A stretch of 36,479 nucleotides of DNA. It comes from an uncultured bacterium (GTDB lineage: Bacteria; Fidelibacterota; Marinisomatia; Marinisomatales; AB-629-J13). The stretch lies in the NCBI GenBank assembly GCA_964489755.1, contig CAZBBE010000002.1, forward strand, positions 1 to 36,479. Reading direction: 5' to 3'. This document shows positions 2,771-30,610 of this stretch, one piece after another. The notes beneath the pieces are model-generated. The model was not told where the DNA came from. It ran no database searches and saw nothing but the letters and a program-made list of their open reading frames with translations. Both the position numbers and the translations under genes were made by a program. Within the stretch, counting starts at the first letter, position 1. Each line of letters opens with the position of its first letter.

Positions 2771-4144
2771 ATGAATCAAAAACAATTAAAAACATTGCCT
2801 TCTATATCTGAAGTATTACTTGAGATAAAACGGTTAACAGACTTTGACCAAAGAATATTAATTCTTTGGATTAATGAAATATTAGAGAAGTATCGATCCA
2901 GTGCTATAAAAGGTAAATTGAAGCAGGATAGAAAAGAAATTATTCAGAATACTGTTTCGACTGTTTTAGAAAAATCACAAGGGAGTTTAAGACCTGTTAT
3001 TAATGGAACGGGAATCGTTCTTCATACGGGTCTAGGACGGGCACCCATCCACCGTCAAGTAATTAAAAAAGCCTCAAAAATGATGGAAGGATACTCAAAT
3101 TTAGAATTCCAGTTGGAGTCCGGTAAGAGAGGAAATCGTCAGTCTCATGTATCCCATTATTTCAGAGCTATAACTGGTACAGAATCAGCTATGGTTGTGA
3201 ACAATAATGCAGCAGCAGTTTTATTGGGAATTAACACATTGGCGGAAAATAAGGAAGTAATCGTTTCCCGAGGTCAGGAAGTGGAAATAGGGGGATCATT
3301 CCGAATCCCTGACATCATAGAAAAAAGCAGCGGAATATTAATGGAAGTTGGAACTACTAATAGAACTCACAGAAAAGATGTCGAAAAAGCTATAAATTCC
3401 AAAACTGGACTATTACTTTGGGTTCACACATCTAATTATAAAATCCATGGATTTACCCAGGATTTATCTCTTAAAACCCTTGTGGAAATTGGGAGGAAAA
3501 AACGAATTCCGGTCATGGCGGATTTAGGCAGTGGTGCTCTTCAAAATATCTCAAATCTAGGGCTTCCCAAAGAATTTTCTGTTCAGGAAATTATAAAGAT
3601 AAAACCCCAACTCACTACTTTTTCAGGAGATAAATTATTGGGAGGACCCCAGGCAGGGATTATGTTAGGATCAAGAAGGCTAATTCAAAAATGCGGTCAA
3701 AATCCCCTTTACCGAACGGTAAGATGCGATAAATTAACGATTTCCTTATTAGATGAAACTTTAAAGTTATTGGGAAGAAAAAAACAGGTTAAACACAATT
3801 TAGCATTATCTTTATTGGCAACTTCTGGAAAACAATTAGTTCGGCGAGTAAATCAGCTGGTGGATTTACTCCCTCAAAACCTTGTTCGATCATTTGGTAT
3901 ATCTGCCATTGAAACAAAGGTTGAAGCAGGCAGTGGTTCACTTCCTGTAAAGACCTTACTAAGCGCTGCTCTGGTGTTTTCTTCAAAAAAAATCAAACCT
4001 ACAGCACTGGCGAAAAGATTCAGGAAAGGCAATCCTCCATTAATCGGATATATTCACAAGAATAAATTTTATATTGATTTTAAATCTGTTCTTCCCGAAC
4101 AGGATAAAATCATTATTCAGCTTATTCAGGATAGCCTTTCATGA
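2771..4144 (+). CDS. selA: L-seryl-tRNA(Sec) selenium transferase SelA
   Basis: Close block matches to E. coli SelA recalled from memory: PVINGTGIVLHTGLGRAP, VVNNNAAAVLL, VSRGQEVEIGGSFRIPD, EVGTTNRTH, VHTSNYKI.GFT, FSGDKLLGGPQAGI (PLP lysine), SGSLP. Confidence 0.93.
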   Translation: MNQKQLKTLPSISEVLLEIKRLTDFDQRILILWINEILEKYRSSAIKGKLKQDRKEIIQNTVSTVLEKSQGSLRPVINGTGIVLHTGLGRAPIHRQVIKKASKMMEGYSNLEFQLESGKRGNRQSHVSHYFRAITGTESAMVVNNNAAAVLLGINTLAENKEVIVSRGQEVEIGGSFRIPDIIEKSSGILMEVGTTNRTHRKDVEKAINSKTGLLLWVHTSNYKIHGFTQDLSLKTLVEIGRKKRIPVMADLGSGALQNISNLGLPKEFSVQEIIKIKPQLTTFSGDKLLGGPQAGIMLGSRRLIQKCGQNPLYRTVRCDKLTISLLDETLKLLGRKKQVKHNLALSLLATSGKQLVRRVNQLVDLLPQNLVRSFGISAIETKVEAGSGSLPVKTLLSAALVFSSKKIKPTALAKRFRKGNPPLIGYIHKNKFYIDFKSVLPEQDKIIIQLIQDSLS

Positions 4145-6021
4145 ATCAGATTGTCATCGGTACTGCAGGGCATATTGATCATGGCAAAACAGCCCTTGTG
4201 AAAGCCCTAACCGGAGTAGATACCGATAGATTAGTTGAGGAGCAGAAACGGGGAATGACCATTGATTTAGGATTTGCATTTTTAAATGACCGTATTACCA
4301 TTATTGACGTTCCCGGTCATGAACGCTTTATACGGAATATGGTAGCAGGTGTATCTACCATTGATTTTGTAATCTTGGTGATAGCCTTGGATGATGGAAT
4401 GATGCCCCAAACCATGGAGCATTTAAACATAATTGATTTATTGAGGATTCCTGATGGCGTTATAGTTTTAACCAAATCTGATTTAATCAAGGATGGTCAA
4501 TGGGTGGATTTGGTTAAAGAAGAAATAAAGGAAAAGACTGAAGGAACCATTTTAGAAGGTAAACCCATCATTAAGACTTCAGTTAACACCAATGAAGGAA
4601 TTAAGGAATTATATGATCTACTGAGTTCTTTGGAAGGAGTTAAGGTTAAATCCCAAAATGATGAAAATTTCAGATTACAGATTGATCGAGTATTTCATAA
4701 AACCGGATATGGAATAATCCTCACCGGGACGGTACTCTCTGGAAATCTGACAATTGGGTCATCAGTTGGAGTTCAACCCTCAAATAAAACGGGGAAAGTA
4801 AGGGGACTTCAGAGTCATGGTGAACCGGTTGATTTTGTTTCGAAGGGAGATAGGGCAGCTGTTAATTTGACTGGAATTGAATTGGCGCATGTCTGGCGTG
4901 GTTCGGAACTTGTGACACCTAAGTCCATTCAAGCAACTCATCGAGCCATTGTCCATATAGAATTAATTGAAACTACAAAATGGAAATTAAAAACCCAGCA
5001 ACATATTCGGATCCATTTAGGAACATCGGAATCATTGGCTAAGATTGTTTATATCCCTAAAACAATTTCTGCCGGAGAATCCATAAACGCAGTTTTGGAA
5101 TTTAATAAACCGGTTACTACAGCATTGGATGATCGTTTTATTATACGGGCTTATTCCCCCATGGATACAATTGGAGGAGGAAAAATTTTGGATAAAGATC
5201 CAGAAGGAAATTGGAAAAAAATCAAAGTTCAATGTCAACGGTTATCGAAACAGGTGTCAGAACGTTTCTCTCAATTTATTACCTACTCAGACAATGTACC
5301 AAAATCAGTAGAATTTTGGGCTGATAAATTTTCAAAATCCAAGGAGTACATCCATCAATTGGTTGAATCCAATCAGTTAGTTAATAAAAAAAATATGGTG
5401 TTTTCTGAAAAGGGAAAAGATTTTTCAAAAAAAGCGATTTTAGATTACTTAACTGATTTTTATGAGAAGAATCCATATCGTGCATATATTAATTCGGAAT
5501 CTGTGCGGAATGAGTTAGGCTTCAGTCGATCCTGGTACGATTATATTGTTTCAAAATTAGATGGAAAGGAAATAACACTTCAAAAAGGCGGATTGACGCT
5601 AAAATCTCACAAAATTGAATTGTCCAAAAAGGATAAAAAAAGTTTGGAGCAAATTAAACATATCTTGTCCAAAATTCAATTTCTCCCCGTGTCATTAAAA
5701 GATATTGAAGAAAAGATCCAATGTGAATCTGATCAGATTCTTGAATTACTGCATGTGTTAAAACGTCAGGGATATTCACTAGATATTTCAAATCAACTGT
5801 GGATGAGTAGACCTGATTTGGATAGATTGATTGAAAAACTTGATGAGTACTATATTTCGAATGAAATTTTAAGTGTAGGAAAATTTAAATCAATGACGAA
5901 TCTTACACGAAAAACTGCTATTCCTCTTCTGGAATATTTAGATAAATCTGGTATTACATTCCGGAGGGGAAATGAACGTATTCAGGGATCAAAATTTCCC
6001 TCAAAACAAGAACGGGTGTGA
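4141..6021 (+). CDS. selB: Selenocysteine-specific translation elongation factor SelB
   Basis: N-terminal GTPase (GTAGHIDHGKTALVKALTG.DTDRL.EE..RGMTIDLGFA, DVPGHERF, TKSD). Long C-terminal extension of winged-helix type, 626 aa. ATGA overlap with the selA stop. Confidence 0.92.
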   Translation: MNQIVIGTAGHIDHGKTALVKALTGVDTDRLVEEQKRGMTIDLGFAFLNDRITIIDVPGHERFIRNMVAGVSTIDFVILVIALDDGMMPQTMEHLNIIDLLRIPDGVIVLTKSDLIKDGQWVDLVKEEIKEKTEGTILEGKPIIKTSVNTNEGIKELYDLLSSLEGVKVKSQNDENFRLQIDRVFHKTGYGIILTGTVLSGNLTIGSSVGVQPSNKTGKVRGLQSHGEPVDFVSKGDRAAVNLTGIELAHVWRGSELVTPKSIQATHRAIVHIELIETTKWKLKTQQHIRIHLGTSESLAKIVYIPKTISAGESINAVLEFNKPVTTALDDRFIIRAYSPMDTIGGGKILDKDPEGNWKKIKVQCQRLSKQVSERFSQFITYSDNVPKSVEFWADKFSKSKEYIHQLVESNQLVNKKNMVFSEKGKDFSKKAILDYLTDFYEKNPYRAYINSESVRNELGFSRSWYDYIVSKLDGKEITLQKGGLTLKSHKIELSKKDKKSLEQIKHILSKIQFLPVSLKDIEEKIQCESDQILELLHVLKRQGYSLDISNQLWMSRPDLDRLIEKLDEYYISNEILSVGKFKSMTNLTRKTAIPLLEYLDKSGITFRRGNERIQGSKFPSKQERV

Positions 6022-8672
6022 ATATGAACCCAGACATGAATGATTCACCAAAAATACAAGATTTAAAAGAAAAAAATACACAAATCATTTCTACTGGTAC
6101 TCCTCTCATGCGGCAATATGGTGAGGTGAAATCAAAATATCCTGACAGTATTGTTTTGTTTAGAATGGGGGATTTTTTTGAAACCTTCAATGAAGATGCA
6201 AAAATCACGGCGAAAATTCTGGGTATTGTATTGACGAAGAGGACAAACGGCGCTGCCGCTGATGTCCCTTTGGCTGGCTTTCCACACCATTCTTTAGATA
6301 ATTACCTTCCTAAAATTGTTAATGCAGGACATAAAGTAGCCATATGCGAACAGGTAGAAGATTCCAAATTTTCAACTGGTATTGTAAAACGTGAAGTAAT
6401 TGAGATTGTGTCGCCCGGTACTCTGGCACCGGATGAAGAGTCACTTCAAAAGTCAAATAATTTTATCGTTTCCCTAATCTTTTCACAGAATAATGTTGGC
6501 TATGCGGTACTAGATCAATCTACGGGTGAGTTTTATTTGGGAGAATCTCCCGAAGATACTTTAAGTGAATCTCTTCGCCAATTTTCGCCTAGGGAAGTAC
6601 TTATAGCGGAATCTCATACCTATATCACATCTAATTGGTACAAAAAATTAAAACCTTTTATTTCTCGGGTTGATGATTGGGCATTTGATTATGATCACGG
6701 ATACAGACTCTTGACGGACCATTTCGAAACCCCGTCCCTAAAGGGATTTGGATGCGAGGAATACAATTTAGGAATATGCGCTGCAGGTGCAATGATGTAT
6801 CAAATGAAACATAATCTTAATTCACCATTAAATCATATTTCAACTATAAAACCCATTTTAAAAGACTCAATCATGGGGCTCGACAGTTTTACCATGAGAA
6901 ATCTGGAAATTTTTAATTCCCTGTCCACTCAAGGCACACACGGAACATTAACAAGTATTCTGGATGAAACTGTTTCACCCGGAGGTGGAAGATTGTTGAA
7001 AAAATGGCTTCACAATCCGTTGACCGATATGGAGCGGTTGATTGACCGGGTAACTATTGTTGATGCATTCACTAAGGAAAAATCAATCCTACGTACTCTG
7101 AGAGATCTTCTAGGAAAAACATCTGATCTTGAAAGAATATTGGGGAGAATCAATCGGACCAAAGCCACACCCAGGGACTTATTGGGACTAAAATATACGT
7201 ACGAGCTAATTACTCAAATATTGAAAAAACTCAAAGAATCTAATGTGGTGAATTCACTTAAAATCAATACGTGGTTTGGAGAAACTAAATCGTTGATAGA
7301 TTCCATCAAATCCAAGATTAAAGAGGATGCACCAGCGACTTTAAAACAGGGCGGAGTTATTGCTCAGGGAATTAATTCGGAATTGGATGAACTTCGTTCA
7401 CTGGCAAAAGATGGTTCTGAATGGATAGCCCAATTACAATCTTCTGAACGGGAAAGAACCGGTATTTCATCACTAAAAATAGGATATAACAAGGTATTTG
7501 GATATTATATCGAGGTGACAAAAACTCACTTGGAAAAAGTCCCTTCTGAATATATTCGAAAACAAACCTTAGTAAATGCAGAACGGTACATCATTCCTGA
7601 ATTAAAGGTATATGAGGAGAAAATTCTAAGCGCAGAAGAAAAATTATGTGAGATTGAAAACTGTTTATTCCAAGAATTATGCCATGAAATTTTATTAGAA
7701 GCCCATTCCATAAAGAAAAATGCTGAAAGTCTTAATAAACTGGATGTTTTAACTACCTTTGCATATTTGGCGCTTCAAAATAAATATGTGAAGCCCCGGT
7801 TTAGGCAAAAATCCATCCTGAAATTAAAAAAAGCTCGCCATCCAGTTGTGGAAAAACTGTTACCTGTCACTGAAAAGTTTATTCCGAATGATCTTGAAAT
7901 CGACACAAAAAAAAATCAAATTCATTTAATCACTGGCCCAAATATGGCGGGAAAATCCACCTATTTACGGCAAGTGGGACTCATTGTAATTATGGCTCAA
8001 ATCGGGTGTTTTGTTCCCGCCGAAAAAGCCGAGATGGGTATAGTTGACCATCTGTTTACACGAGTGGGAGCCAGTGATAATTTAGCAGGTGGGGAAAGTA
8101 CTTTTTTAGTGGAAATGATTGAAGCGGCAAATATTCTGAATAATGCAACCCAGAACAGTCTAATTCTTCTAGATGAGGTGGGCAGAGGGACAGCAACATT
8201 TGACGGTTTATCCCTTGCATGGGCGATTACAGAATATTTACACGATGATTCACACGTAGCAGCCCGAACACTGTTTGCAACCCACTATCATGAATTAACC
8301 GTTTTAGAAGATTCTTTGGACAGATTGTCCAATTATCATGCGGATGTTAAGGAATATAAGGATAAAATCATTTTCCTTCGAAAAATAATACCAGGAGCTG
8401 GTGATAAAAGTTACGGCATTCATGTGGCAAAAATGGCAGGACTTCCAATGTCGATTATTCAACGTGCAAATGAAATCCTTTTACAACATATCAATCAATC
8501 AAAAGAAAACCAGATTCAAAGTGAGATATCCAGTCCTGATACACAAGAATTATTGTTCGACATTGAGGAGAAAAAATTAAAAAAAGAATTAAGTAAATTA
8601 GATGTTAATTCTATAACACCTATAGAAGCCCTCCAAATACTGTTTGATTTAAAAACCAAATATGAATCATGA
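6018..8672 (+). CDS. mutS: DNA mismatch repair protein MutS
   Basis: TPLMRQY...K.KYPD.IVLFRMGDFFE.F..DA; Walker A GPNMAGKST; STFLVEM; LLDEVGRGT.T.DG; THYHEL. The start may be ATG 6024 rather than GTG 6018. Confidence 0.95.
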   Translation: MNMNPDMNDSPKIQDLKEKNTQIISTGTPLMRQYGEVKSKYPDSIVLFRMGDFFETFNEDAKITAKILGIVLTKRTNGAAADVPLAGFPHHSLDNYLPKIVNAGHKVAICEQVEDSKFSTGIVKREVIEIVSPGTLAPDEESLQKSNNFIVSLIFSQNNVGYAVLDQSTGEFYLGESPEDTLSESLRQFSPREVLIAESHTYITSNWYKKLKPFISRVDDWAFDYDHGYRLLTDHFETPSLKGFGCEEYNLGICAAGAMMYQMKHNLNSPLNHISTIKPILKDSIMGLDSFTMRNLEIFNSLSTQGTHGTLTSILDETVSPGGGRLLKKWLHNPLTDMERLIDRVTIVDAFTKEKSILRTLRDLLGKTSDLERILGRINRTKATPRDLLGLKYTYELITQILKKLKESNVVNSLKINTWFGETKSLIDSIKSKIKEDAPATLKQGGVIAQGINSELDELRSLAKDGSEWIAQLQSSERERTGISSLKIGYNKVFGYYIEVTKTHLEKVPSEYIRKQTLVNAERYIIPELKVYEEKILSAEEKLCEIENCLFQELCHEILLEAHSIKKNAESLNKLDVLTTFAYLALQNKYVKPRFRQKSILKLKKARHPVVEKLLPVTEKFIPNDLEIDTKKNQIHLITGPNMAGKSTYLRQVGLIVIMAQIGCFVPAEKAEMGIVDHLFTRVGASDNLAGGESTFLVEMIEAANILNNATQNSLILLDEVGRGTATFDGLSLAWAITEYLHDDSHVAARTLFATHYHELTVLEDSLDRLSNYHADVKEYKDKIIFLRKIIPGAGDKSYGIHVAKMAGLPMSIIQRANEILLQHINQSKENQIQSEISSPDTQELLFDIEEKKLKKELSKLDVNSITPIEALQILFDLKTKYES

Positions 8673-9676
8673 TGAAAAAACAAATTTTCAAAAAAATCCT
8701 TCTTTTTTCAAATCTTCTCATTTTGACCCTTATATCCAATTTAAATGCAGGTAATTCTGTATTTCACACTGTAATTGATGCCTCGGCTCTGGCAGTAGGA
8801 AATGCACTTACAGGTGCTCGATTTTCTCATGATGCTGGATTAGCCAATCCAGCACGAATTAATCAATTCAAACCGGGTGCTGTTTTATTCTCAAGTGAAT
8901 CCCGATTTTCCGGCACTTTATATAGACATATATTCGCCTATCGAAGTCTTTCTTCCTCCATTAAATTTCTATTTATTCATGAAGGAATTTATAAAATTCC
9001 CGATACCCGTTATGCTTTAGATGATTGGAATGGTGATGGAATGTTGAACGGAAATGAACGACTGATTACAGGTCAGATATCCCATTTTGGTCAACATCGT
9101 TATGGTGTCATGATCCAACACTCAATTTCATGGAAAGATTGGCAGATTGGGATGGGATATAATACATTTATTTCTTCCCTTGCAGATGAAAACGGTTATG
9201 GACTCACCATCAATGGTGGAATCCTCAAGCAGTGGAATTCATCATTTTCTGTAGGATTAGAAATAAAAAATATTGGGATATTACCCATGAAATGGACCAC
9301 CGGATATCAGGAATCCTGGTCACCGGAAATTTTTATAGGTGGAAGTATCACACCTGTAATGAAATATATGTGGTGTGAAATTAATCTTTTTTTTGATGGA
9401 GGACTCCGACTCACAGAACGGACATTGGATGACGATTTTCATATATATGACAATGGTGGTATTGTCCGTTATGGAGTAGAACTAAATGCAGATGAAATAT
9501 GCGCAATGAGAATTGGCAGGTCCGGAAAAGGAAAACTGGCAATAGGATTCAGTATTTCCACTGAAAAAAATATATTAAATTACACTTTGAGCACAAAACA
9601 GGGATGGGGTAAAAATTCAACCGGTCATATTTTCACTTTTTTACTGGATGTAGAGACAATAAAAAAATGGTTTTAA
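8669..9676 (+). CDS. Secreted, probably outer-membrane protein of unknown function
   Basis: N-terminal signal peptide (MMKKQIFKKILLFSNLLILTLISNLNA). Gly/aromatic-rich alternating pattern consistent with a beta-barrel. ATGA overlap with the mutS stop. No family assigned with confidence. Confidence 0.5.
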   Translation: MMKKQIFKKILLFSNLLILTLISNLNAGNSVFHTVIDASALAVGNALTGARFSHDAGLANPARINQFKPGAVLFSSESRFSGTLYRHIFAYRSLSSSIKFLFIHEGIYKIPDTRYALDDWNGDGMLNGNERLITGQISHFGQHRYGVMIQHSISWKDWQIGMGYNTFISSLADENGYGLTINGGILKQWNSSFSVGLEIKNIGILPMKWTTGYQESWSPEIFIGGSITPVMKYMWCEINLFFDGGLRLTERTLDDDFHIYDNGGIVRYGVELNADEICAMRIGRSGKGKLAIGFSISTEKNILNYTLSTKQGWGKNSTGHIFTFLLDVETIKKWF

Positions 9677-16158: not shown

Positions 16159-17661
16159 TTGAATACCATCATTCACCAAAAATTACTTCTCTCACTCTTA
16201 AGCGGACTATTCATCGGTTTATCTTATCCACCCCTACCGTTAGGATTTTTTGCCTGGTTTGGGCTCATACCTTTATTTCTATCATTAGAAGGTAGCGATT
16301 ATAAAGAATCATTAAAATATGGTTACTCGGCGGGAATCACTGCGCATTTTATCGTTCTATATTGGATTGGTTTTAATAGTGGAGCTGGATTTGTACCTGT
16401 TTTTCTTTCACTAATAGGTGCGATTTTTTATTTATCTCTATTCTGGGGGTTGTTTGCTGTTACTTTACAATATTTTTTACAGGAAAAGACCATCTTCCTT
16501 TGGTTTGCTCCTTTAATCTGGGTCACAATGGAATGGCTCAGGAGTTTGGGGCCACTTGGATTTCCGTGGATGGATTTAGCCCTTACCCAATCCCGATTCA
16601 TTCAGTTTATCCAAATAATGGACGTAACGGGTTCGTCTGGAGTTTCACTTTGGATTTTGATTTTGAATGTTCTTTTATATTTTGCAATTACGGTTAGAAA
16701 AGGAAATAGGATTTATTCTATAGCTGCCATCAGTTTACTTGTCGTTTTATGGCTGTTTGGTTCACATAAAATTAAATCTGTTGAAAAAGATTTTATCGGA
16801 AAGTCTATTGTCGTGGCAGTAACTCAACCTTCTGTGGACCCAAATGAAAAATGGGAAAAAGATCATCGAAAACAAACATTTGAACTCATGCATCAGCTTT
16901 TGGATAAAGCTGTGGAATTAGATCCTGATATGATTGTTTGGCCTGAAACCGCATTACCCAGTTATTTACGATTGTCCGGAAAAGATCGCTCGCCGATTCA
17001 GGAAAAAGTGAATAGAAATGAAATACCTTTATTTTCCGGAACGATAGACAGAGAAAATTCTGAGGAAGGGAAACCCCTTTATTTCAATGGATCCATTTTT
17101 TTTCAACCGCACAAACTTCCTGAAATATATCATAAAGTGAAATTAGTACCCTTTGCAGAATATGTTCCTTTATCCGGATATTTTCCATCATTGAATGATC
17201 TAAATTTTGGTCAGGGGAACTTTACAGCAGGAAATGAATTTACTTTATTTCAGTTTGACAAATTTTCATTTTCAAATCTGATTTGTTATGAATCCAGTTT
17301 ACCAGATATAGTGCGGAAATTTGTATTACAAGGCGCAGAGTTTTTAACCATCCAGGCAAATGACGGGTGGCTAGGAAAAACATCGGGCCCCTATCAACAT
17401 TTTGAAATTGCAAAAATGAGAGCTATAGAAAACCGAAGATCAATAGTGAGAAGTGCCAATACAGGAATCTCTGGGGTTATTCTGCCAACTGGAAAGATTA
17501 AAGTAATACAATCATTGGGAGAACGAGTTGTCTTTAAGGAAACTGTACCTTTGGCTGAATTCACAACTTTTTTTTCTAGGAATGGAAATATTTTAGGAAA
17601 ATGGGTTTCGCTTATATTTATTATATGTGTAGGAATAATTTTATGGATAAAAAAAATATAA
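16159..17661 (+). CDS. lnt: Apolipoprotein N-acyltransferase
   Basis: Multi-TM N-terminal half, then a CN-hydrolase domain (WPE, ICYES catalytic Cys, N.GWLG..., R.AIENRR..VRSANTGISG). 500 aa, TTG start. Confidence 0.88.
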   Translation: MNTIIHQKLLLSLLSGLFIGLSYPPLPLGFFAWFGLIPLFLSLEGSDYKESLKYGYSAGITAHFIVLYWIGFNSGAGFVPVFLSLIGAIFYLSLFWGLFAVTLQYFLQEKTIFLWFAPLIWVTMEWLRSLGPLGFPWMDLALTQSRFIQFIQIMDVTGSSGVSLWILILNVLLYFAITVRKGNRIYSIAAISLLVVLWLFGSHKIKSVEKDFIGKSIVVAVTQPSVDPNEKWEKDHRKQTFELMHQLLDKAVELDPDMIVWPETALPSYLRLSGKDRSPIQEKVNRNEIPLFSGTIDRENSEEGKPLYFNGSIFFQPHKLPEIYHKVKLVPFAEYVPLSGYFPSLNDLNFGQGNFTAGNEFTLFQFDKFSFSNLICYESSLPDIVRKFVLQGAEFLTIQANDGWLGKTSGPYQHFEIAKMRAIENRRSIVRSANTGISGVILPTGKIKVIQSLGERVVFKETVPLAEFTTFFSRNGNILGKWVSLIFIICVGIILWIKKI

Positions 17662-18293
17662 CTTTTATTTTACTTCTAATTTTAATAACTCCAATAACGG
17701 AGATAAAAGCTCAGACGACTGGGAAGGGAGATTATCCTCATTATGTGTGGCGATCACTGGTGATTCCGGGATGGGGCGAATATTCCTTAAATGATAAGAA
17801 AAGAGGAAAATTATTTATTATTACCGAATCTCTTCTTTGGATTGGAATGGGAGGGAGTTTTTTAGGATCGAACTTAGAAAAAAATACTTATGAATCAATT
17901 GCTATGAAACACGGGGGAATTAGTTCGGGTGACAAACCACGACAATTTTGGATTGATATTGGATTTTATGATAGTCGGGAATACTTTATAGCAGAGCATC
18001 TACGCTGGAGAGATTTTGATGCAGTTGGAGCCTATGAAGATCCGGAATGGGATTGGAACTGGGATTCCAAGTCAAATAAAGAATATTTTGAATCAAAACG
18101 AATCCGAAGTGACCGATTATTGCTGATGGGAAAATTTTTTATTGGCGGAATTGTATTGAATCATATTATTTCCGGAATTGATGCTTTATATCTCAGTCGG
18201 AAACATTTAGGAAATGAAATCCAGTTTTCAATTTCTCCAATTAACTCATTACCTGATGGAAAAATTTATTTAAATCTTTCCGTTTCATTATGA
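17643..18293 (+). CDS. Hypothetical secreted/membrane protein
   Basis: Signal peptide from ATG 17643 (MDKKNITFILLLILITPITEIKAQ). SLVIPGWGEY motif followed by hydrophobic segments. No confident family. Confidence 0.5.
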   Translation: MDKKNITFILLLILITPITEIKAQTTGKGDYPHYVWRSLVIPGWGEYSLNDKKRGKLFIITESLLWIGMGGSFLGSNLEKNTYESIAMKHGGISSGDKPRQFWIDIGFYDSREYFIAEHLRWRDFDAVGAYEDPEWDWNWDSKSNKEYFESKRIRSDRLLLMGKFFIGGIVLNHIISGIDALYLSRKHLGNEIQFSISPINSLPDGKIYLNLSVSL

Positions 18294-28486: not shown

Positions 28487-28512
28487 TAGGAAAATAAAAT
28501 TGAAAGGAAGTT

Positions 28513-29679
28513 ATGAATCATTTGAAAAATAAGAGCGGATTGGTCTTTACTCTCATCGTTTCAGGGTTATTTTTCTCCTGTACGGGTTCGGAAAAACGAG
28601 ACCTTAAGGGAACCCTATCTTTTGTCTTATCTGCTAATGTTAGGGCCCAATTCGACCCCTGCGGCTGAAAGAATAACCCTCTTGGCGGTCTGCCAAGAAA
28701 ATTAACATATATTAATGGGTTGAGAGAGCAGGGAAAAGATCCGGTAATTCTGGATGCAGGAGAGGTGTTGTTCACGTCGCCCCTTGTGTTGGATAACACT
28801 CGGTCTGCTGATGAATATAAAGCGAAAAATATCATCAAAGGGTATGAGGAGATTGGGTGTGATGCAATCAATATTGGAGGATATGAACTTGCTGGAGGCG
28901 TTAAATTTTTACAGAGCATAATGGATGCAACGGATATTCCATTTATTTCTGCAAATCTTCGTATTAAATCTACCGGAAAATTATTTACTGACCCATATGT
29001 GATTGTTGACCGTGAACCTTTCAGAATCGGCATCATTGGACTTACAAATCTTCTGAAGGATGGAAACAAGTATATCGTAATGGATGACATATATGATTCA
29101 GGGAAGAAATACATGAAGGAAATCCGGAGAAAAGCTGATTTAGTGGTCATACTGGTGAATGCTGACAAAAAAGAAAAACAGGTTTTGCAGGATGAGTTCA
29201 GGGATGCGGATTACATTGTGATGAGCAGGGATATATCTAGGACAAAACAGGGACAACCTCCGGCGAAAAATTTGCCACCAATTTATTGTCCCGGAAAGCA
29301 GGGGAAATACATGGCATTTATGGAAATGGACATTACTCACATTGACTCACCACACGTGGATGTCAGCTATTATAACAAGCAGATACAGACTTCTGAACGG
29401 CGGATTGCAAACTATCAAAAGAGGAACCCTGAGATACCTCTCAAAGAATTATATACGGAAAACCAAGCTATTTATAGTCAAATTGTGACCTTGGAAAAGC
29501 AAATGCTGGATGCCAAAAACACAATAGCCAATGCGAATAACAAGATAGAATTTGAACTGATCCCAATGAGCAGGAAGATCCCGGATGACCCGAAAATGCT
29601 TACATTTGTTGACGATATTTTATCAAAGGATAAACAATTAAGGGACAACTCTTTTTCACCTATTATTAAGAAGAAATGA
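28513..29679 (+). CDS. Predicted selenocysteine-containing lipoprotein (Sec52 encoded by TGA 28666-28668; C-G-U motif) with a degenerate 5'-nucleotidase/metallophosphatase-like N-domain
   Basis: ATG 28513 is in the same frame as listed ORF 28720-29679, with only one stop (TGA) between them. Signal peptide plus lipobox LFFSC lie upstream of the TGA. SECIS-like hairpin 11 nt downstream. The domain similarity spans the TGA. selA/selB are in the window. Confidence 0.75.
28666..28698 (+). promoter_or_regulatory. UGA(Sec) codon plus bacterial SECIS-like hairpin
   Basis: UGA, then an 11-nt spacer (AAGAAUAACCC), then stem U-CUUGGC (28680-28686) / GCCAAG-A (28692-28698) with apical loop GGUCU (28687-28691). 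Spacing and the G/U-containing loop resemble the E. coli fdhF SECIS. Confidence 0.7.
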
Positions 29680-30164
29680 CCATCGATTCCCCCCTGCGCC
29701 AAAGTGTGTTTATTCTAACCATTTCATCTATTTTTTCTATTGGCTATAATACCATACGTTTGGACAGTCTTGACCTCATCTATGAAAAGCCGGCGGACGC
29801 AGGAATTAGTAAACTTGACTCTCTTCTTGCTGCTGAGACCATTTTGGTTGCACCGGTTATGGTTGACCTTGAACTGGCGAAAAAGATGTACGACCTTGGT
29901 ATTATGTTTGTAGATGCACGGGATAAAGATGAATACGATGAAAGTCATATCACAGGGGCTATTCTTGAACCTACCATTGCAGGTGAATTAACAAAGAATT
30001 TTCCTCCAGACAAACCACTCATCACCTATTGTAGCGGGGGACACTGTGACTTGAGTTTTGAACTTGCAATGGAACTTATGGAAGAATGGAATTATGAAAA
30101 AGTGTTCGTCTATGAAGGGGGACTTCCGGAATGGGAAGAAGCTGGGTATCCGGTGCACAGGTAA
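29676..30164 (+). CDS. Membrane-anchored single-domain rhodanese-like sulfurtransferase
   Basis: N-terminal TM (VFILTISSIFSIGYNTI). Rhodanese domain FVDARDKDEYDESHI.GA, active-site loop YCSGGHCDLS, GG...W..AGYPV. ATGA overlap with the preceding selenoprotein gene. Confidence 0.85.
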   Translation: MTIDSPLRQSVFILTISSIFSIGYNTIRLDSLDLIYEKPADAGISKLDSLLAAETILVAPVMVDLELAKKMYDLGIMFVDARDKDEYDESHITGAILEPTIAGELTKNFPPDKPLITYCSGGHCDLSFELAMELMEEWNYEKVFVYEGGLPEWEEAGYPVHR

Positions 30165-30166
30165 GA

Positions 30167-30610
30167 ATGAATTATTTGCAAAACAAATGGATTTCTCTGG
30201 TATTCCGTCTCTTTTTAGGTGCGATGTTCATGTATGCCAGTTTGGATAAAATCAATGATCCAGAAACATTTTCAGGTGACATAAGAGCCTATCAAATTGT
30301 TCCGTTTGGATTGGAAAATTCTGTGGCTATCATTCTACCGTGGTTAGAACTATTGATTGGCATTGGCCTAGTTATCGGAGTTATGGTTGATGGTTCCGCT
30401 CTCATATCTATGGGTTTACTGGTGGTATTTATTATAGCTATCAGTTCTGCAATTTTACGAGGATATAACATTGATTGTGGATGTGGATTAAAAGAAGGGG
30501 AAGTAGTGGGTACCCAAAAATTGCTGGAAAATACTATTTTCTTTTTAATGGGATTGTTCATTATAAACAGACCCTCAACATTGTATGAAATTTTTCCTAA
30601 ATCGGATTGA
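30167..30610 (+). CDS. MauE/DoxX-family redox-associated membrane protein
   Basis: About 4 TM segments. RLFLGAMFMYASLDKI.DP..F...I.AY.I.P, LPWLELLIG and the family-typical G..IDCGCG motif. ATG 30167 lies 2 nt after the rhodanese stop; the ORF track starts it at 30131. Confidence 0.8.
   Translation: MNYLQNKWISLVFRLFLGAMFMYASLDKINDPETFSGDIRAYQIVPFGLENSVAIILPWLELLIGIGLVIGVMVDGSALISMGLLVVFIIAISSAILRGYNIDCGCGLKEGEVVGTQKLLENTIFFLMGLFIINRPSTLYEIFPKSD

Follow-up and report, generated by a model that had tools for sequence, protein, structure and literature searches.

A short-form UshA-like Cys-Gly-Sec selenoprotein predicted in Marinimicrobia and its conserved rhodanese and MauE/DoxX neighbours

The UshA-like selenoproteins (COG0737), characterized by a Cys-x-selenocysteine (CxU) motif, were listed as a family by Zhang and Gladyshev (PLoS Genet 2008, PMC2398784), who counted 76 sequences with selenocysteine (Sec) and 92 homologues with Cys in the Global Ocean Sampling (GOS) data. 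These 76 sequences place it among the more abundant selenoproteins in the ocean samples of GOS, and the paper counts the family among those 'previously described' (PMC2398784). The main texts of the Sargasso Sea 2005 and Olavius 2007 papers do not name it. The family was relisted in reviews of 2022 and 2026 (PMC9312934, PMC13188914), the latter of which cites the NCBI model NF041198. The 2008 paper assigns these proteins no function and analyses neither their operon context nor their metal site. Here we analyze a member of the family encoded in a 36,479-nt stretch of DNA (contig CAZBBE010000002.1 of assembly GCA_964489755.1, positions 1 to 36,479; hereafter, the window) from an uncultured bacterium of the Marinimicrobia (Neomarinimicrobiota/Fidelibacterota). 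Its reading frame, 28513-29679 on the + strand, contains an in-frame TGA at 28666-28668. We predict that this codon is decoded as Sec and that the entire frame is one selenoprotein gene, with a probability of about 0.93. The protein shares with the CxU family of 2008 (PMC2398784) the DPCG-U-K.NP.GGL motif, the lipoprotein-type N-terminus, the 5'-nucleotidase-like domain and the marine origin, and differs from it in nothing essential. It is a short-form member of this published family, and the finding as such is already known.

The frame holds 388 sense codons, its one internal stop being the TGA mentioned above. A Shine-Dalgarno-like AGGA, read in the sequence at 28505..28508, ends 4 nt before the start codon, ATG 28513, and homologues align end to end with the full 388-aa product carrying Sec52. 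This product reads MNHLKNKSGLVFTLIVSGLFFSC...NVRAQFDPCG-[TGA]-KNNPLGGLPRKLTYING... and terminates at TGA 29677-29679. The immediate context of the codon is FDPCG-(TGA)-KNNPLGG, which places Sec52 in a Cys50-Gly-Sec52 motif; the Cys50 codon, TGC at 28660..28662, is invariant in both homologue alignments. The N-terminal sequence, MNHLKNKSGLVFTLIVSGLFFSC, has the appearance of a signal peptide (28513..28581) with a lipobox-like Cys23 (28579-28581) at its end. The lipobox region is LFFSC (residues 19-23), and most homologues also have a hydrophobic N-terminal segment followed by Cys, in the form LVSC, VGAC, ITSC or LSAC. No such Cys is present in a paralogue group, designated group B. The gene for lipoprotein N-acyltransferase, lnt, lies within the window at 16159-17661. 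The mechanical list of open reading frames (ORFs) contains only 28720-29679, beginning at a TTG in the same frame as ATG 28513. A sequence-only reading of the window had joined the two parts across the TGA, proposing a Sec codon in C-x-U context in a gene missed by the ORF list, with ATG 28513 and its AGGA as the start, a signal peptide and lipobox ahead of the TGA, 5'-nucleotidase similarity beginning upstream of it, a hairpin behind it, and selA and selB in the same window. The coordinates, the frame and the single in-frame TGA are confirmed by translation, and the remaining proposals agree with the comparative data presented below.

Comparison with curated models places the protein next to, rather than inside, a defined equivalog. 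With U replaced by C, it has no significant Pfam family, none even at E up to 1, and neither Metallophos nor 5_nucleotid_C is matched, the domain being too diverged for these models. The best NCBIfam match is NF041198, 'UshA-like (seleno)protein' (model UshA_like_PCGU, an equivalog; E=4.4e-61), which aligns protein residues 19-379, the PCGU motif included, with profile positions 8-384 of 519. Two long-form relatives pass the curated cutoff of this model with 337-345 bits: L083 from Syntrophorhabdaceae and L084 from Deferrisomatales. Their C-terminal domain carries four CxxCH haem motifs, whereas the window protein has no CxxCH. Three Marinimicrobia forms that were scanned reach 195-240 bits, and the tetrahaem tail is absent from the Marinimicrobia forms examined. 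UshA-like (seleno)protein family 2 (NF049981), with a CxxU motif, matches at 37.6 bits versus a cutoff of 140, and the window protein, having CxU, is not a member.

The link to the 2008 data can be followed down to individual reads. In the part of Dataset S1 compared, the heading '#COG0737_UshA' covers at least 74 'PCGU' strings from Sanger reads (PMC2398784). Within that part, GOS read JCVI_READ_508186 is identical residue for residue from Met1 to L023, a homologue sharing 40% identity with the window protein over residues 14-372; the match extends over the approximately 85 residues visible in both, until a discrepancy at the read end. The N-terminus of the read is MNIIKYSFLTVLIFLVSCTNTKEDVGGSVTLLVSTNVRGQLDPCGUKKNPLGGLSRK... 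Both paralogue types of Marinimicrobia (U-KKNP and U-PKKP) occur in the same part of the supplement, the group B reads having DPCGUPKKPLGGLSRK. The string of the window subclade, NVRAQFDPCGU, is absent from the compared part.

The recurrence of the TGA carries most of the argument for Sec. A search of 5.8 billion proteins yielded 194 relatives, the majority 296-340 aa long with a start past the TGA. In six full-length homologues from the databases the motif is DPCGWKK, Trp occupying the Sec site. The DNA of four of these six was inspected; the codon is TGA in all four, and the Trp is therefore a translation-table artefact. No homologue starts downstream of the TGA with a signal peptide of its own; the shorter proteins in the databases result from gene calls that cut the frame short. 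When one genome per species was scanned with the pattern IGCD..N.G, 80 loci were retrieved, nearly all from metagenome-assembled genomes (MAGs) and single-cell genomes of Marinimicrobia, plus one each from Syntrophorhabdaceae and Deferrisomatales. Together with the four homologues checked at the DNA level and the window itself, and counted where the Sec site is covered, these make approximately 84 loci. The aligned codon is TGA in every one of them, with the proteins being only 30-83% identical. Such regularity greatly exceeds what chance would give. The retrieval pattern is at a distance from the Sec codon, so that ascertainment does not explain the recurrence. Every covering locus also has an in-frame start and a hydrophobic signal peptide upstream of the TGA, usually with a lipobox-like Cys at its end.

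Codon-level comparison with seven close relatives indicates that the frame is translated both before and after the TGA. Over the 27 codons preceding it, differences are distributed 44/8/94 over codon positions 1/2/3, and 77 codon changes are synonymous versus 37 non-synonymous, as expected if the segment 28513-28665 is conserved as protein. In the 17 codons from the TGA to the TTG, the distribution is 9/13/38. The third-position bias on both sides argues that both segments are translated, and the pattern indicates purifying selection upstream as well as downstream of the TGA. A second line of evidence comes from a profile search of 1.84 billion representatives, which returned 9737 hits (182 below 1e-30), many of them beginning exactly at the position following the Sec codon. 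Residue counts are based on the 60 family representatives that span the Sec site. The aligned residue is Cys (C-G-C) in 36, spurious Trp in 15 and part of a CxTC variant in 2; the motif is absent from the remaining 7, three of which are ordinary multidomain nucleotidases. Three Cys-form homologues that were looked up have genuine Cys codons and are exact translations of their DNA. The Sec/Cys exchange classically taken as the mark of a selenoprotein is thus what the alignments indicate at position 52. Among the approximately 84 loci no Cys form occurs within Marinimicrobia; such forms are present only in more distant representatives.

Downstream of the TGA, a candidate selenocysteine insertion sequence (SECIS) is embedded in the coding sequence (CDS). 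It folds as a 7-bp hairpin at 28680..28698, beginning 11 nt past the UGA, with the stem 28680-28686/28692-28698 and the apical loop GGUCU at 28687-28691. The codons GGC-GGU-CUG (Gly-Gly-Leu) have invariant nucleotides, synonymous sites included, despite the proteins being only 30-40% identical. Across 79 distinct sequences, 92.4% of the stem cells are paired, and the pairing is destroyed when the 3' partner is slid. The pair 28683/28695, which joins third positions of Leu and Pro/Ser codons, occurs as GC (37), AU (18), UA (9), CG (4), GU (6) and UG (2). The covariation score is 0.283 versus 0.135 in shuffles, none of 500 shuffles reaching the observed value. The hairpin thus appears to be kept beyond what the protein sequence requires. 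A comparison with the E. coli fdhF sequence, fetched for this purpose, reveals that in both genes the hairpin lies within the CDS and that GGUCUG is identical in sequence and in its 21-nt offset (GGU-CUG, codons +7/+8 after the UGA). Unlike the fdhF element, the stem in the window is a perfect 6-7 bp helix without a bulged U, and no long lower stem is predicted.

The window also encodes two components of the Sec machinery, both on the + strand: selA, the L-seryl-tRNA(Sec) selenium transferase (2771..4144; TIGR00474, 513.5 bits versus a cutoff of 267.9), and selB, the Sec-specific elongation factor that binds SECIS (4141..6021; TIGR00475, 356.9 bits versus a cutoff of 242). The comparative evidence supports a SelB-dependent mechanism in which UGA 28666 is read as Sec by means of an fdhF-like SECIS inside the CDS. 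The hairpin, lying in Leu-Gly-Gly-Leu-Pro-Arg codons, would recruit SelB and tRNA-Sec to this UGA, and the product would be exported behind its signal peptide and probably be lipid-anchored.

Several observations pull in the other direction. The hairpin alone is not unusually stable in single-sequence folding (z = -1.45), and a permissive Rfam scan of 28600-28780 (E up to 10) gave only chance-level matches; with such unimpressive single-sequence statistics, the case for a SECIS draws on the comparative data. Neither tRNA-Sec (selC) nor selD is found within the 36-kb window, where the Rfam gathering scan for tRNAs detected only four, for Ala, Gly, Cys and Leu. Finally, the NF041198 score of 207 bits is below the curated cutoff of 275. 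Together with the missing tail, this score assigns the protein to a short-form sister clade of the NF041198 equivalog and not to its formal members.

These points have to be set against what other explanations of the TGA would entail. Were it a true stop, the locus would produce a 51-residue lipopeptide and a separate cytoplasmic protein of 319 residues, starting at TTG 28720 or another internal codon. The mechanical ORF list presents the locus in this way, and most public gene calls for the homologues, 296-340 aa long, do likewise. This explanation is nevertheless very improbable, given that the 17-codon segment from the TGA to the TTG is kept as protein (KKNPLGGLxRK) with third-position-biased change, that the called internal starts vary among homologues, that the fold begins with a beta-strand encoded ahead of the TGA, and that Cys-containing homologues read straight through. 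Reassignment of TGA to Trp or Gly (genetic code 4 or 25) could account for DPCGWKK in the six full-length database homologues and for the Trp in 15 of the 60 representatives. However, of the 30 long ORFs that the window contains, 13 end in TGA, the selenoprotein gene itself among them, and the codon is therefore an ordinary stop without genome-wide reassignment. In a scan of both strands for TGAs flanked on each side by a long open frame, 28666 is the single + strand site, and the two further sites, on the - strand, are both antisense to annotated genes; no other gene in the 36 kb needs read-through. Moreover, selA and selB are present, homologues free of TGA align Cys and not Trp or Gly, and the nucleotide-level conservation of the downstream hairpin would be left unexplained, all of which makes reassignment extremely improbable. 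A sequencing or assembly error, or a pseudogene in this particular genome, has in its favour only the presence of the stop codon itself. The identical codon in approximately 84 independent assemblies from many studies refutes an assembly error, and its recurrence in at least 74 Sanger-read sequences in the compared part of the GOS supplement (PMC2398784) reduces this option to a negligible chance. Sec at UGA 28666 remains our preferred reading, and the following analyses concern the protein that it implies.

The fold was analyzed with the AlphaFold (AF2) model of P0023, a 61%-identical homologue with Trp in place of Sec. The model has a predicted local distance difference test (pLDDT) value of 86 and a predicted template modelling (pTM) score of 0.83, and is confident outside the Cys-x-Sec loop. 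Its first beta-strand comprises residues 32-39, upstream of the TGA, and residues ~283-376 form two long helices, a strand and a helix. The top Foldseek matches are the N-terminal domains of E. coli UshA (E=2e-18) and CD73, with ~290 aligned columns and a query-normalised template modelling (TM) score of ~0.5. PDB profile matches to 5'-nucleotidases have E about 1e-14, and hhalign against E. coli UshA gives a probability of 97.5% over residues 30-284. The 5'-nucleotidase similarity thus begins upstream of the TGA in both the alignment and the model, as the sequence-only reading had maintained.

The window protein therefore has the same N-terminal metallophosphatase fold as E. coli UshA (PDB 1USH, 2USH, 1OID); it differs from it in lacking the dimetal site, the catalytic dyad and the 5'-nucleotidase C-terminal domain. 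According to the hhalign alignment, the UshA metal ligands D41, H43, N116, H217, H252 and Q254 correspond to N43, R45, G123, N216, R239 and I241, respectively, and D84 corresponds to E84, the sole position that stays acidic. The dyad residues H117 and D120 are aligned to Y and A, and the UshA segment IGNHEFD, which contains the GNHE motif, to IGGYELA. In total, six of the seven dimetal ligands and both residues of the His117-Asp120 dyad are replaced. With the dimetal site gone, the protein is probably not a nucleotidase. In the same alignment, 'DPCG' appears as a four-residue insertion directly behind the former motif-I loop, which bears the first metal ligands in UshA, and Sec52 comes next. 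The N-domain similarity noted in the sequence-only reading thus stands, with two qualifications: the protein is not novel, the family having been published in 2008, and nucleotidase activity was probably lost along with the metal site.

A comparison with the SoxB thiosulfohydrolase (TIGR04486) gives a related picture. SoxB is a sulfur-cycle member of the 5'-nucleotidase superfamily and uses a dimanganese site. Homology to its model is weak: the window protein scores 27 bits and L083 up to 94, far short of the 550-bit cutoff. Like SoxB, the window protein is associated with sulfur-handling proteins, here a rhodanese. Unlike in SoxB, the dimetal site is lost, and there are no Sox genes nearby.

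The selenoprotein gene is followed on the + strand by two genes for thiol or sulfur proteins. The first (29676..30164) encodes a rhodanese-domain protein (PF00581, E=4e-15) with an N-terminal hydrophobic anchor and the active-site region YCSGGHC. Its ATG overlaps the selenoprotein stop, TGA 29677-29679, in an ATGA, and the gene is probably translationally coupled to the selenoprotein gene. The second (30131..30610) encodes a MauE/DoxX-family membrane protein (PF07291 MauE, E=1e-29; PF07681 DoxX) with a DCGCG motif, for which ATG 30167, just past the rhodanese stop, is the likelier start. The selenoprotein-rhodanese-MauE trio is kept in 59 of the 84 loci, with reading frames overlapping or abutting, and 49 loci have a SUI1/YciH gene upstream. 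Proteins of the DoxX/DoxD type are connected with thiosulfate:quinone oxidoreduction (DoxDA) and, in mycobacteria, with the rhodanese SseA. Nothing useful was found in the literature on a link between DoxX/MauE, rhodanese and a selenoprotein.

Loci without the trio are mostly on short contigs or belong to the second paralogue, group B. Group B proteins are ~367 aa long, have the motif DPCG-U-PKKP (or KKKP/KKRP) and a signal peptide without Cys, and lack rhodanese and MauE neighbours. They represent a second copy in the same Marinimicrobia genomes (L042, L046, L050, L054, L055, L056, L067, L068, L076, L079, L080 and L082). In four of these loci (L056, L042, L046 and L067), the gene directly follows one for a TlpA-like redoxin (WCKPC). 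In the long forms L083 and L084 (about 4000-5400), the UshA-like Sec domain is fused to the four CxxCH haem motifs. L083 (1464-5353) additionally has a tandem rhodanese immediately upstream, plus a gene of the UGSC family, another selenoprotein family, just upstream. One further locus deserves a remark on its taxonomic label. L008 (CAXRJK010000112.1), labelled as a Winogradskyella sp. MAG, has the gene order TPR-SPOR-SUI1-selenoprotein-rhodanese-MauE-OpdA found in the window, its proteins being 61-69% identical to those of the window, the rhodanese only 34%. The contig is probably mis-binned Marinimicrobia.

The rhodanese, the MauE/DoxX CGC protein, the TlpA-like redoxin of the paralogue and the tetrahaem cytochrome of the long forms all point to thiol/sulfur redox chemistry in the envelope rather than to nucleotide hydrolysis. 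The conserved rhodanese/MauE operon suggests, without proving it, a periplasmic Cys-Sec redox or sulfur-transfer role. Cys50 and Sec52, on the loop that once held metal ligands, may form a reversible, redox-active selenenylsulfide, and the selenoprotein would then be a periplasmic redox or sulfur-transfer enzyme acting on sulfane or thiosulfate-type sulfur. Its partners would be two co-transcribed gene products, the rhodanese anchored in the membrane and the membrane thiol protein of MauE/DoxX type; in the long forms, the fused tetrahaem cytochrome c would take the electron-transfer part. Put more broadly, and only tentatively, the UshA-like Cys-Gly-Sec lipoprotein, the membrane-anchored rhodanese and the MauE/DoxX-type CGC protein may constitute a Marinimicrobia module for envelope redox of sulfane sulfur, thiosulfate or selenium, in which a metallophosphatase scaffold switched from dimetal hydrolysis to selenenylsulfide chemistry. 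Since no Cys form occurs among the approximately 84 loci, the module would be obligately Sec-dependent in this phylum. We consider this complete scenario possible, at clearly less than even odds.

Some of the evidence speaks against such a role. The proposal derives from gene neighbourhood, and the three Cys-form homologues, which come from other lineages, have unrelated neighbours with no rhodanese or MauE, so that the operon argument does not extend to the whole family. The 2008 paper did not class the UshA-like family among those with Cys-based redox motifs (PMC2398784). In the model, the Cys-Gly-Sec loop, with Trp standing for Sec, has pLDDT below 50, and its place at the former active site is given by the alignment only. 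A true selenoprotein could also still be a phosphoesterase, either a nucleotidase or a SoxB-like thiosulfohydrolase, with an altered metal site in which Sec and Cys are ligands and not a redox pair. The 5'-nucleotidase fold and the weak matches to SoxB and nucleotidase models are consistent with this, as is the position of D84, which is Asp in most homologues and Glu in the window. The equivalent of H43 is His in many homologues (SVHGQ), yet it varies within the family, being R in the window clade and H elsewhere. The His-rich C-terminal tails of many homologues hint at metal binding. We nevertheless find a phosphoesterase unlikely: in the window protein six of the seven ligands and both dyad residues are replaced, the nucleotide-binding C-terminal domain is absent (no Pfam match, and a helical C-terminus in the model), and the neighbours are thiol and sulfur proteins. 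A Cys-Sec redox or sulfur-transfer function remains the preferred suggestion for this selenoprotein, and the lost metal site together with the conserved rhodanese/MauE operon provides a concrete functional hypothesis for a family that is still uncharacterised.

For annotation, the consequences are more immediate. The family, the CxU motif and the marine clade were all published in 2008, and the NCBI model NF041198 covers the longer relatives. Its cutoff excludes the short Marinimicrobia form, and a pipeline applying this cutoff would miss the gene. Most public calls in the clade are either cut off after the TGA (296-340 aa, named 'hypothetical protein' or '2',3'-cyclic-nucleotide phosphodiesterase') or have Trp in place of Sec. 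No description was found in the 2008 paper or in the 2022 and 2026 reviews of the proposed module, the lost metal site, the rhodanese/MauE operon, the presence of two paralogues in Marinimicrobia, the lack of Cys forms in this phylum or the miss by the curated cutoff. The earlier call of a Sec codon at 28666 is thus correct, for a selenoprotein already known and still uncharacterised, and is useful for annotation repair. Database proteins that are Trp-translated or shortened include P0023, P0027-P0031, P0126, P0137 and P0141-P0149, the Trp apparently arising via genetic code 4.

Several minor features complete the description of the locus. The window protein ends in IIKKK, without a His-rich tail. 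Such tails (HKHGHNHNHNH, GHNH, GHSH, GHDH or HHGHNH) are present at the C-termini of many homologues, including P0023, P0028-P0031, P0135, P0143 and P0147, and suggest metal binding. A 216-aa ORF lying antisense to the selenoprotein gene (28518-29168, - strand) was discounted, the coding signal on the + strand being strong; the high conservation of the + strand frame probably accounts for this spurious ORF. At the other end of the window, the reading frames of selA and selB share 4 nt, and mutS comes directly after them, the three genes spanning 2771-8672. Two + strand ORFs located in the run of housekeeping genes, 8669-9676 (335 aa) and 17601-18293 (230 aa), match no Pfam family at E up to 1e-5. 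The remainder of the window is housekeeping in character and includes rimM, trmD, rplS, mutS, dnaB, relA/spoT, ruvX, lnt, truA, htrA, psd, pssA and batA-like genes.

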